Assembly: GCA_017380635.1 (NCBI GenBank)
Contig: JAFODP010000004.1
Span: forward strand, 86,828 to 150,827
Direction of reading: 5' to 3'
From: Bacteroidales bacterium
GTDB taxonomy: Bacteria; Bacteroidota; Bacteroidia; Bacteroidales; UBA1402
DNA: 64,000 nucleotides
The number at the start of each line of letters is the position of its first letter. The first letter of the stretch is position 1. The notes under the pieces were generated by a model. The model saw only the letters and a program-made list of their open reading frames with translations, was not told where the DNA came from and made no database searches. The position numbers and the translations under genes were made by a program. Below, one piece after another: positions 30,827 to 34,300 of this stretch.

Positions 30827-31354
30827 TCAAAAATTCAATTCAATACCTCGGTTCTGACACTCATTAACAAATGTTTCACAATCAGGCAAAAAAAAGAAAA
30901 TAGAATCATAATGATCAAAAATAGCATTTCTACGCACATCGTTAAATTTCTCTTTATCAACGATATAATACTCATTCTGACCAATCGAATCGTTATACAT
31001 TTTTACTATTATCCATTTATCATCTGCATTGGCTTCTACAACAAAATCTCCGCGTCCGAACTGTTTAGGAATGAGTTCCTTGCCATCATCACAAACTCTA
31101 TAACGACGCACATCATCGCCAAGAAGAACATACCTACTGCGCACGTGAAACTCTCTCAGATAAATACCATCTCCAAGATTTTTCGATGCCGTTATATCCA
31201 TAGAAGGCATATAGTAAGAAGTCTCAGTAAGCACAAGGAGTAATAAAATCAACGATATTAACACCCATACAAACCACAAAAACCATTTTCCGAATTTGCA
31301 AAGTACTTTGAATGCTATTTCAAAAATCCTTTTCATAACCTCATTTAATTTCAT
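30827..31354 (-). CDS. TM-anchored small protein, cognate immunity candidate for the Rhs C-terminal toxin
   Basis: 175 aa. Its ATG (31354-31352) overlaps the Rhs TGA (31353-31351) in an ATGA arrangement. Basic N-terminus plus one TM helix (WFLWFVWVLISLILLLLVL). Confidence 0.65.
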   Translation of the reverse strand: MKLNEVMKRIFEIAFKVLCKFGKWFLWFVWVLISLILLLLVLTETSYYMPSMDITASKNLGDGIYLREFHVRSRYVLLGDDVRRYRVCDDGKELIPKQFGRGDFVVEANADDKWIIVKMYNDSIGQNEYYIVDKEKFNDVRRNAIFDHYDSIFFFLPDCETFVNECQNRGIELNF

Positions 31355-34300
31355 TGCCGTAAAATTCCTACTCCATAATAATATGTTTGAAACCCATGCA
31401 TTTGAGGATTAATCCCATATACAAAGTTATTAACTTTTATAAATAACTCCCGAAATCCTCCACCACCTTCATTCCAATCATAGTTTGTAGCATCATCATT
31501 ACTGATTTCAAACATCCGCTCTTCCTCATCAATTAAAGTCACACTAACGCGACCTAATGCATATACTGTCGCTCTCAATCGTGGATTTATGGCTGATTCT
31601 ATCAAATTAACAAACTTGAATAGATTTGTCCTATTTTTATCCTTAATTTCTATGTATTGACGATCGGAAATATTACCAAAATCTAATAAAGCCGTATTTA
31701 TATACAACATATTATCAGGCGTAGGATTACCTAAGGCTCCAGGGTGTGATTTCGCCCATCTAATACCCTCTAACGCTGTTACAAATCCATCGTAATCTGG
31801 CCTATTGGGTATATTAGCATGATGACTCTTAATGAAGGTCTCAACAGCCTTAGGTAGGCAACCTAAAACCGCATGTTCACATGCATCTGCATGAGACATT
31901 CCCTGAGTAAAACTCTGTCCATCCATAACGATATAATCACCGCCTATACCTAAATCATCTGTTCCAAGAAAATCACCTCGTGTGCTATAAATAGGACTTT
32001 GCCCATTCGGATCTACAAAAGCGACGGGATTATTCGCACAGTAGGTATAGGGGCTTAGATGATAATAGTCTTCGGCTTTGGGATCGATGGAGGTCCATTG
32101 CTGGAGCGTGGCGTCGTAGGAACGGGCGCCGAAGTCGTACCAGTTCAGGCCGTGCATGCGGTCCAGTTCCTTGCCGCCGTATTTGTAGGGTTGCACGGCC
32201 GAGCCGCTTCCCGCATCGGCATACACCCCGCCAAAGGGATAGTAGTGTGTGGTTTGCAAAATAGTGCCCGTTTCGTCCACCACCACTCGGTTGTTGCCTT
32301 GATAATCTTTCGTATAGTAGCGGAAACGCGGCAATGATGCGGTTGTCGAAGTCGCGTCCAAATCCACATAACCACCATCGAAGAGATAGCGCTTAACGCT
32401 TCCGTTTTCGTATATCAGGTTGGCGCTGTAGTCTGTCGAGTCGATGGCTATTATCTGCTCGGCATCCAGTTCCACGGTCTCTCCAAGCGGCACGGTCACG
32501 TTGTCCACGGCCGTCACATAGATGCTGCGCAACTTCTGTCCCGATGGACTGTACACATAGCTGATGCTGTTGCCGTTGGTGAACTGTATCTTCTTGGGAC
32601 AATTCCTAAGGTCGTATTCTATGGAGGCTATTCCCTTATTGGCATCGCTTATCAGGGCACCGTTGGCGTTATAACGGTATTCCGTTGCCAGATCGGCATC
32701 ATCTTTGAAGTCGGCGGCATTGAGGCGGTTTACGGGCAGGGCATCATCGGTGACCTTCTTCAGCTTATTGCCGCTGAGCTCTATGTTGAGATTGTCTATC
32801 TTGCCGTACACCCCGTCGTTCTTCAAGCCGTGGCGCTGCAGGCGTTTGATGACACCGTTCTCCGAATACGACAACACGGCTTCCGTATAGCGATTGGGAT
32901 TGTCCAGCATGTCACGATGTTCTCCGTACTGCGCACGCGTAAGACGGTTCAAATGGTCATACGTAAACTTGTAACCTCTATATAGTCCGCCATTGTCGGT
33001 GGTCCATAGTTTGCTGCTGATATTGCCGTTGTAGAGAGGCGTTCCTGCTCCGCTCTCGTAGAAGAGTTCTTCCTCGTAGCCTCTTCCGCTCAGACGGGTA
33101 ATCCATCCATGCAAATTATACTCGTAGCTCGTCGTGGCAGCATTATCGCCTTGTCGGAGGATTGATACGCGGCCAAGATCGTCGTAGGTTATGGATTTGA
33201 CGGTCTGTGTCTGATGCTTGCTTTCCGTTCCTGCTTTCAACGTGGTGGTGAGCAGTTTACCGCTCGCCCCGTCGTGGTTGTTTGTGATTTCTGCTTTGTT
33301 TAAAAGCGTTATCTGCCCGCTTTCTTTTTTGTACTCTTCGTGCAGGATGCGGTCGATTTCTCCCCAATAAGTATAGGCCGTGGATGTTTTGATATATCGG
33401 CCATCAAGACCGAGGCTTCTTGTTTGCGTCTGTCGGCCTTTTTCATCGTAATAGACCACATCGAGCAGCAGTTCTCCATTGCCCGCATACTGCATCGTTC
33501 CCGTTGGCAGGGACTTGGCATTATTCGACAAAGAGGATTGTCTTAACGAGTCTATCGGAATGGAAACATGCTGTGCATAGCCGTTCAAAAAAGCATAGTC
33601 GTCGTAGTAATACACTTTCTCTATCACAGGACCGCCTATGCGCGATGGCGTTTTCAATTCATATCCGCTCTGACAGAAACTTGACCCGATGTTGCCCGTA
33701 TAGCGAGCCTCATTCACCTCATCACCTCTTTGGCAGGACAAGCATACGCCCTCTATCGTCAAACGACCAAGATTATCGTACAAGAAAAAGCGGTACAGGC
33801 CTCTTTCCCTGAGATTGGCATCCTGCATGAAAGTTCGGCGGCCGGCCCGGTCGTACCAATACTGTTCATATTCGCACGAGGGCAGTATCTTCTTCACACA
33901 ACGACCTCTGTCATCGTAGCGATACTCGTAAGCGTACTGATCCTTATATCCCGACTTCTGATATTCCGGACTAAGCACATAGCGCAACTGTCCCAGGTCG
34001 TTGTACACGAAGTAGGTATCGTTGTTTGCTCCGAGACGCTCCAAGACTTTTCTTCCGAGTTTATCCTTGAAGATGCATATCTTGTGGCCGTCCTCGTCGA
34101 TGGTCTCTTCCCCATACAGGCTGTTGGCCGCATAATAGCCGCTCTTCACCAGGCTCACCCTGTCCATGGGTGCCTCGTATCTCTTTACCGAATTGGCGGC
34201 ATTGCTTACATAGCGGACGGTGATGCGTTTTTCATTGCTGTTCCAAGTCTCTCCGGCTTTTTGTATACTTGTCGGTCTATCCAACGCATCGTAGCCTCTT

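Follow-up and report, generated by a model that had tools for sequence, protein, structure and literature searches.

Colicin M (ColM) is an enzyme that degrades lipid II, a precursor of the cell wall. It works in the periplasm, to which its inner-membrane-associated immunity proteins are also exposed (PMC5821083). The same source, a 2018 review, describes the ColM family as proteobacterial bacteriocins with diverse inner-membrane immunity partners, and brings up Rhs proteins solely as a separate toxin class (PMC5821083). A ColM-like domain has also been reported in T6EC1, an effector of a type VI secretion system (T6SS) that was recognized by Foldseek and is toxic in the periplasm (bioRxiv 10.1101/2023.03.26.534264). 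Furthermore, Burroughs et al. mention in passing a novel Colicin M-fold toxin domain in Bacteroidota cystatin-like lipoprotein toxins (eLife 2025; PMC12419801). Here, we examine the C-terminal toxin tip of an Rhs polymorphic toxin, together with its adjacent immunity genes, in a 64,000-nucleotide stretch of a Bacteroidales bacterium from a ruminant gut metagenome (GenBank assembly GCA_017380635.1, contig JAFODP010000004.1, positions 86,828 to 150,827; hereafter, the window). We find that a Bacteroidales Rhs protein, presumably exported by Sec, carries this tip as a swappable toxin cassette. The explanation that we favor, at a probability of about 0.55, is that this cassette is a ColM-like tip that would attack lipid II or a related envelope precursor.

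The tip shares with the ColM family (ColM, PaeM, syringacin M, and pectocins M; PF14859) a remote, supported homology over ~120 columns, which runs via a more distant set of Rhs tips (family B, below). It keeps the Tyr-Asp and the Arg of the signature region, is expected to act in the periplasm, and is likewise a modular, exchangeable killing domain. Its immunity protein is tethered to the inner membrane and has a periplasmic domain, the same topology as Cmi. Unlike the ColM family, the tip has no Pfam or Foldseek match, is missing equivalents of Asp226 and His235, and carries an extra RPDxDG...E motif and a 62-amino acid (aa) N-terminal subdomain. The carrier is a Bacteroidota Rhs protein rather than a TonB/FhuA-dependent soluble bacteriocin of Proteobacteria, and the immunity protein is DUF3997-like, whereas those of ColM systems are the YebF-like Cmi or the four-helix PmiA.

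As in other Rhs/YD-repeat polymorphic toxins, a YD shell, a TIGR03696 core, a DPxG junction, a variable tip, and an adjacent immunity gene follow one another, with a GC drop at the junction and orphan tip/immunity fragments in related loci. The window protein differs from them in its Sec signal and DUF6443, and some of its relatives are ~260-aa proteins with a vestigial core. T6EC1 is comparable in that a ColM-like domain sits in a contact-dependent or polymorphic effector, was missed by ordinary sequence searches, and acts in the periplasm. It was found by structure, whereas the window tip was reached only by profile-profile comparison and not by Foldseek, and T6EC1 has another carrier (T6SS), another phylum, and another immunity family (DUF943). 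The toxins of Burroughs et al. share with the window system a Bacteroidota host, an assignment as ColM-like, periplasmic immunity proteins that are lipoproteins or anchored in the membrane, and a lipid head group as the predicted target. Their immunity proteins are called BamE-like or jelly-roll, in contrast to the DUF3997 link found here, and the carrier here is an Rhs protein. Their ColM-fold domain may overlap the tip families that we call A and B; this identity is unconfirmed, and no sequences or accessions of the domain were found in the supplementary files searched. The tip system is thus not categorically new; it is probably a diverged form of colicin M-like Rhs toxin.

The Rhs gene and the end of its core are located as follows:

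31351..34662, minus strand: Rhs polymorphic toxin gene, 1103 aa (open reading frame and translation)
31999..32244, minus strand: Rhs-associated core domain, aa 807-888, with the DPNGQ junction motif at its end (TIGR03696)

From its N-terminus, the Rhs protein consists of a Sec-type signal peptide (read from the sequence, MKTKKKIWLLLLGVLTSQIFIAQ), DUF6443 (PF20041, aa 37-151, E 7.7e-14 in Pfam), a YD-repeat shell, the Rhs core, and the toxin tip. Matches to RHS/YD repeat models in Pfam and NCBIfam are weak. The core model TIGR03696 (Rhs_assc_core, NCBIfam) matches above its cutoff at aa 807-888 (E 9.2e-17), with model positions 1-76/76 covered. This match stops exactly at ...VAFVDPNGQ (...NNPVAFVDPNGQ), aa 888, which is where the initial annotation had ended the core, at the position of a DPxG motif. 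The DPNGQ motif is a putative aspartyl autoproteolysis site and recombination junction. A TIGR03696 core ending in a DPxG junction and a candidate cognate immunity gene directly downstream (ATGA-coupled) mark the protein as an Rhs polymorphic toxin. Pfam finds no PAAR domain in it, its N-terminus being the Sec signal and DUF6443, and no T6SS genes (PAAR/VgrG/T6SS) were seen in the neighborhood scanned around the gene. A literature search found no paper on DUF6443.

Orthologs of the Rhs protein exchange their tips. We compared the members of its 90% cluster (P0291-P0304), of which the named ones are Bacteroidales metagenome-assembled genomes (MAGs). Their cores are 96-97% identical over aa 1-860, and beyond DPxG their “identity” to the window tip is 9-20%. 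The divergence begins right after the DPNGQ motif, and at least five unrelated post-junction sequence types occur in the cluster. Because near-identical cores bear unrelated tips after DPxG, the C-terminal displacement that had been proposed for this gene can be seen directly. Two cluster members from other samples carry the window tip type, at 93% identity. The other tip types in the cluster, at least four besides that of the window, begin EALETVWDVTSLVTG..., EIPLPVIIWAIYEVG..., EAWRPTICMLPSGLFYY... and ESLKLWLKSSRKIAK...

The tip itself comprises two parts and two conserved motifs:

31813..31998, minus strand: N-terminal subdomain, tip residues 1-62 (PIYxxxGxFLGTDDxGxxG...QGMSH plus helices; family alignment, AlphaFold)
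31354..31812, minus strand: divergent colicin-M-like toxin domain, tip residues 63-215 (hhalign via family B)
31786..31803, minus strand: RPDYDG motif at tip R66-G71, invariant like the E77, G78, and W81 that come after it (column counts)
31450..31482, minus strand: YDWNEGGGGFR, tip Y173-R183, counterpart of the colicin M signature D226-K-Y-D-F-N-A-S-T-H-R236 (hhalign alignments)

Translation of 31354-31998 (minus strand) yields the 215-aa tip, SPIYSTRGDF...GVGILRQ, with the coordinates and residues first assigned to it. The tip has no match in Pfam, NCBIfam, or PADLOC (E ≤ 1 or 0.1) or among PDB sequences (E ≤ 10), and a profile of its family matched PDB entries in the Rhs-core portion only. 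A word-index search returned 288 homologs, the best 58% identical and none with a Pfam domain on the tip. We call this tip family A. All of its word-index matches with a named source are from Bacteroidota (Prevotella, Bacteroidia, Paludibacteraceae, Weeksellaceae, Flavobacteriaceae, and Saprospiraceae). An exhaustive profile search with the family found 280 representative clusters at E ≤ 1e-30. The window tip agrees with family A at all columns that are ≥95% conserved save L63, which is Ile in the window, and we take this agreement as a sign of selection on the toxin.

The same exhaustive search returned family B, the more distant set of Rhs tips. Its consensus is RPDYDGYLTLxEANxWYRxGxGxPLFVDxSKIDL...VYGxIxLxL...DxYDF...RNxATxIG...GxGxxFxIxxYG. 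This consensus resembles the catalytic domain of colicin M, and the resemblance was tested. A colicin M reference sequence was taken from an annotated plasmid, and a ColM alignment of 18 diverse sequences was assembled from a genome scan. A word-index search with the ColM domain returned close relatives only, and tblastn against plasmids with a Serratia ColM homolog added no diversity.

Profile-profile comparison with hhalign links the three families. Family A, with the window tip as master, matches family B over the whole domain (99.8%, E 3.4e-30), and family B matches the 18-sequence ColM alignment over 126 columns (98.1%, E 1.3e-13). The two tip families combined, again with the window tip as master, match ColM over 117 columns (95.6%, E 1.2e-8). 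The signal is present in both halves of the domain: A against B gives 99.7% for the N-terminal and 97.7% for the C-terminal halves, and B against ColM gives 94.7% and 96.4%, respectively, whereas mismatched halves stay below 1%. Reversed and column-shuffled ColM decoys score ≤25, compared with 82.6 and 54.4 for the real comparisons. When a 20-sequence family B profile was searched against PDB (177,635 distinct sequences), the best five matches were all colicin M (E 0.0014-0.0022), with an alignment that covers ColM 134-267 and places DKYDF in register; a single family B sequence had no match there. The initial annotation had stated that the tip matches no toxin family that could be named. This holds for direct searches and for the Foldseek search of an AlphaFold model that it had proposed, and fails for profile-profile comparison, which reaches colicin M through a sister family.

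Residues of the ColM signature can be followed along these alignments. Tyr228 and Asp229 correspond to tip Y173 and D174 (each 153/157 in family A), and Phe230 corresponds to W175 (157/157). Arg236 probably corresponds to R183, in the loop after the motif; this Arg is present in all 157 family A sequences, with an uncertain exact register. The window tip reads T171-N-Y173-D174-W-N-E-G-G-G-G-F-R183, where family A has the consensus T-D-Y-D-W-N-x-G-G-G-x-x-R, and family B retains D-x-Y-D/N-F...R. Both tip families also have an invariant block that is absent from colicin M, R66-P-D68-x-D70-G...T...E77-G...W81. In family A, R66, P67, D68, and G71 are conserved in 157/157 sequences, D70 in 156/157, and E77 in 155/157; in the family B alignment, the equivalent R4, D6, D8, G9, and E15 are invariant. 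The ColM alignment begins only past the RPDYDG motif, which is a candidate for an extra active-site or metal-binding element. Residues 1-62 are conserved in families A and B and have no colicin M counterpart. The AlphaFold model of the tip, built on a 95-sequence alignment, has a predicted local distance difference test (pLDDT) score of 89.1 and a predicted template modeling (pTM) score of 0.85. Within it, residues 1-62 (pLDDT 94-98) form strands at 2-5, 10-14, and 23-25, and helices at 36-41 and 50-61.

Several results weigh against a ColM-like tip. Family A alone compares with ColM at decoy level (hhalign score 18.9, E 0.025). The window tip is thus tied to colicin M strictly transitively, via family B, and the homology to the ColM catalytic domain is established in that way only. 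Neither PF14859 (Colicin_M) nor NCBIfam matches the tip, 95 family A members, or 10 family B members at E ≤ 1. The position of ColM Asp226 is T171 in the tip (Thr in 127/157 of family A), and His235 has no equivalent in family A, so that the family lacks the colicin M signature DxYD(x5)HR with its Asp226. This Asp is among the essential residues of colicin M, where D226A, D226E, and D226N are all inactive. Its equivalent binds Ca/Mg in syringacin M (PsyM) and PaeM, and PmnH, whose ColM-type domain has a degenerate motif, is considered inactive (PMC8469651). Foldseek searches with the tip model found no match in PDB (best E 1.8, TM ≤ 0.15) or in BFVD. A control AlphaFold model of a ColM-like protein recovered ColM, pectocins M1 and M2, PaeM, and syringacin M (E 7e-30 to 4e-10), so the missing match is a true Foldseek negative. 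In favor of a ColM-like tip, this model and the control model agree in three-state secondary structure at 76/117 hhalign-aligned positions. Against it, there are eight helix/strand conflicts, concentrated in one segment where the tip model has helix and the ColM-like model has beta structure. A weak match of the control model to BtpeA (9jdi, E 0.12) led nowhere.

On balance, and as judged from the profile comparisons, the tip likely belongs to the colicin M superfamily and has diverged strongly within it. We do not file it in the colicin M family proper, since it has neither a PF14859 match nor the full signature motif, and the evidence on its fold is mixed. ColM-like domains also directly follow Rhs-type DPFGL junctions in Nitrospira (L024) and Chthoniobacterales (L033) MAGs. 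This indicates that ColM domains serve as polymorphic-toxin tips well outside Proteobacteria. In these two loci and in three others (L026, L028, and L035), canonical YDFNxSxHR domains occur after ...DPFGL or end open reading frames (ORFs) of at least ~590-630 aa, a length limited by the 1,500-nt flanks.

The alternative that survives best is that the ColM-derived fold has changed its job. The tip might cleave another bond or substrate, such as undecaprenyl-pyrophosphate-linked capsule or O-antigen units or undecaprenyl pyrophosphate itself, or it might sequester lipid II without catalysis; its functional center would be the RPDxDG...E block. The loss of the Asp226 and His235 equivalents, while R66, D68, D70, and E77 are invariant and have no ColM counterpart, argues for such a change, as do the dead D226A/E/N mutants of ColM (PMC8469651) and a predicted structure different enough from ColM to escape Foldseek. 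However, Y173, D174, and R183 of the ColM motif region are essentially invariant, and family B keeps both the Asp-x-Tyr-Asp and the same immunity family, which argues for a shared target. We consider a changed job possible and somewhat unlikely. A related and slightly more doubtful proposal is that family A represents a new enzymatic activity, or a non-catalytic action, on lipid-linked envelope precursors of Bacteroidota, with an uncharacterized Sec/DUF6443 Rhs delivery and DUF3997 proteins as the countermeasure. A new activity is conceivable for family A because it has lost the Asp and His, has gained RPDxDG...E and the 62-aa subdomain, and has no Foldseek match.

It is improbable that the ColM link is spurious and that the tip is an unrelated periplasmic toxin with a new fold, for instance a phospholipase or a protein that hydrolyzes peptidoglycan or disrupts membranes. 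Such a reading would account for the absence of a direct significant match between family A and ColM, for a model with a pLDDT of 89 that finds no Foldseek match, and for the empty Pfam and NCBIfam searches. It is contradicted by the A-B and B-ColM comparisons, each strong, present in both half-domains, and far above decoys, and by the catalytic-motif region, which aligns in register. In addition, Cys/His and Ser/His/Asp catalytic patterns are absent from the tip sequence, as are hydrophobic and glycine-zipper segments.

The site of action can be judged from the immunity proteins, which are encoded directly downstream of the toxin:

30827..31354, minus strand: cognate immunity candidate, 175 aa, with a signal-anchor helix and a DUF3997-like periplasmic domain of ~125 aa (family pairing, topology)
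30306..30806, minus strand: second tandem immunity paralog, 166 aa (BLASTP, 48% identical to the 175-aa protein, E 6e-46)

The start of the 175-aa ORF overlaps the Rhs stop codon as ATGA, so the translational coupling first noted for this gene is real. The hydrophobic helix of the protein, at aa 25-43, comes after six Lys or Arg residues; this arrangement is as expected for an N-in/C-out signal anchor and agrees with the earlier description of a membrane-anchored protein that faces the periplasm. The 166-aa paralog has the same topology, with a hydrophobic anchor at aa 17-35, and is probably an extra or orphan immunity gene. It begins 20 nucleotides (nt) after the 175-aa gene, with no orphan toxin fragment between them.

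We surveyed the pairing in 80 metagenome loci of tip relatives, 73 of which have a qualifying downstream ORF (same strand, ≥80 aa, mostly 125-187 aa, and -29 to +78 nt from the toxin stop). A jackhmmer search seeded with the 175-aa protein identified 72 of these 73 ORFs as its homologs, and 10 of the 73 overlap the toxin gene by 4 nt, as in the window. Each of the 70 distinct family members starts with a lipoprotein-type signal (...SC|N) or with a signal-anchor helix, and no member looks cytoplasmic. These two results support the toxin/immunity pairing that the initial annotation had proposed, and its argument for an envelope target rather than a nuclease or NADase. A periplasmic site of action and inner-membrane-associated immunity, both properties of ColM systems, are indicated here by the immunity topology. 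Since the pairing and the extracytoplasmic partner are conserved across the family, the comparative evidence for a periplasm-acting toxin/immunity pair is strong, and we regard the tip and the 175-aa protein as very probably such a pair.

The immunity family is linked to DUF3997. PF13162 (DUF3997) matches 13 of 61 aligned members (best E 5.8e-8), and in Pfam it matches neither the 175-aa nor the 166-aa protein of the window. The family profile has no match in PDB. A word-index search with the 175-aa protein returned one 91% homolog only, and the family was rebuilt from neighboring genes. Our literature search found no paper on DUF3997. Among family B loci, three of the four examined encode next a lipoprotein or anchored protein of the same immunity family: two have precomputed PF13162 matches, and one matches the family A immunity profile (E 5.9e-8). 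This shared immunity ties family A to the clearly ColM-like family B in function, independently of the profile comparisons. At another locus (L121, 3432-3953), the gene after a family B toxin encodes a membrane-anchored protein of 173 aa that is different and not of the DUF3997 type. ColM-like tips may therefore draw on more than a single immunity family, which has also been reported for the ColM systems of Proteobacteria.

A cytoplasm-acting tip (nuclease, NADase, or ADP-ribosyltransferase), for which the anchored neighbor would not be the immunity protein, is very improbable. We found no evidence for it beyond its being the commonest class of Rhs tip; Pfam, NCBIfam, and PADLOC return no nuclease, NADase, or ADP-ribosyltransferase family, and the neighbor family is present in 72/73 loci and is always extracytoplasmic. 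Least probable of all is that hitch-hiking has preserved a cassette that is decayed or inactive: the ColM signature is degenerate and the window has Asn at tip position 172, which is Asp in 110/157 relatives, but the ORF is intact, agrees with all but one of the most conserved family A columns, is 93% identical to copies in other samples, and has kept two intact immunity genes.

Other identities considered for the tip were rejected: a lysozyme or transglycosylase, having no fold match; an NlpC/P60 amidase, the conserved Cys/His being absent; a pore-forming toxin, the hydrophobic helices being absent; and a nuclease or NADase, because of the immunity protein topology.

According to the explanation that we favor, the Rhs protein would be exported by Sec with its tip enclosed in the YD-repeat shell, and the tip would then be cut off at the DPNG junction. 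It would cross the outer membrane and arrive in the periplasm of a neighboring cell. There, on the outer face of the inner membrane, the domain at residues ~63-215 would attack either lipid II or a related precursor linked to undecaprenyl pyrophosphate and so stop cell-wall synthesis. The producer would be protected by the 175-aa inner-membrane-tethered protein, whose DUF3997-like domain would bind the toxin or shield its substrate in the periplasm, and the 166-aa paralog may add to this protection. That the attack would be hydrolysis of lipid II specifically is close to an even call. Because family A is without the colicin M Asp and His, the chemistry of the tip may rest on RPDxDG...E together with the retained Tyr, Asp, and Arg. 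The ColM link strengthens the case for an envelope target and, at the same time, lowers the novelty of the system.

This explanation offers a testable function for a large unannotated toxin family, for which Bacteroidota are the only phylum among source-named matches. Families A and B together comprise hundreds of 50%-identity clusters from gut, rumen, and environmental samples. It also offers a testable function for the partner immunity family linked to DUF3997, and would widen the colicin M superfamily, so far one of proteobacterial bacteriocins, to include Rhs toxins found in gut Bacteroidales. How colicin M catalyzes its reaction could be studied with a natural variant that lacks Asp226, a residue supposed to be indispensable. 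Proteins that target lipid II in Bacteroidales would be useful for probing how the cell wall is made and how strains compete in the gut, and the locus could help to trace the delivery route of Rhs proteins of the Sec-signal, DUF6443 type.

Many gut and rumen relatives of the tip (P0001, P0004-P0008, and others; loci L039-L043, L046, L050, and L092) are proteins of ~260 aa. They consist of their own Sec signal peptide, the final ~20 residues of an Rhs core (W-P-W-x-SPYAYCxNNPxKFIDPDG), and the toxin; at one locus (L001), no full Rhs gene adjoins. This layout suggests secreted toxins that stand alone and have retained a remnant of the Rhs junction. The ~90-aa N-terminal domain that follows the signal peptide in some of the short tip relatives could be the cystatin-like module of Burroughs et al. 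(PMC12419801).

The tip also differs from the core in base composition. The Rhs core has a GC content of 0.509 (third codon positions, GC3, 0.616) versus 0.369 (GC3 0.247) for the tip. The initial annotation had placed an AT-rich turn at ~32050, ~50 nt before the junction; the break is real, and the best (maximum-contrast) change point lies at 32073 (z = 6.3), ~75 nt upstream of the tip junction. This position falls within the conserved ...SPYTYCANNP...DPNG stretch of the Rhs-associated core domain. From there, the low GC content continues across the immunity genes:

28489..32073, no strand assigned: low-GC block, ~0.36 (0.362) compared with 0.51 for the Rhs core and 0.466 for the window (GC scan)

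The block contains the toxin tip, both immunity genes, and two more small genes, and is a displaced or imported cassette. The two small genes, both on the minus strand, encode a secreted 257-aa protein with a weak match to a MORN-variant repeat (29502-30275) and a 318-aa protein without a family (28489-29445). Both are possible orphan immunity genes that would serve other tips. At another locus (L006), a gene for a MORN-like lipoprotein follows the Rhs gene.

Two genes for secreted proteins lie upstream of the Rhs gene, also on the minus strand. The first (34672-35826) is an ORF of 384 aa, with a called protein of 363 aa; the C-terminus of the 384-aa protein resembles a type IX secretion system (T9SS) sorting domain by eye, and no Pfam model matched. 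The second (35792-38746) encodes a 984-aa protein with a YD-repeat match at its end. This protein is weakly and collinearly similar (E 4e-5; DYWGYWNG, ITFPTGG, VGGLRIKRI) to a large protein encoded upstream of a DUF6443-Rhs gene at another locus (L119), and upstream proteins of this type may be conserved export or delivery partners of Rhs. Divergent from the Rhs cluster is a T9SS core operon (38837-42093, plus strand, and beyond) that encodes PorP/SprF, a GldK-like FGE-sulfatase-domain protein, and GldL; its adjacency may be coincidental.

Farther away, an ORF of 1780 aa (15151-20493, plus strand) has no Pfam match at E ≤ 0.001. The region adjoining the low-GC block (21190-28202, minus strand) consists of pectin/hexuronate-utilization genes, which are ordinary carbohydrate genes for Bacteroidales: two GH28 genes and genes for a serine hydrolase, an altronate/galactarate dehydratase, and an enzyme of the mannitol-dehydrogenase family.

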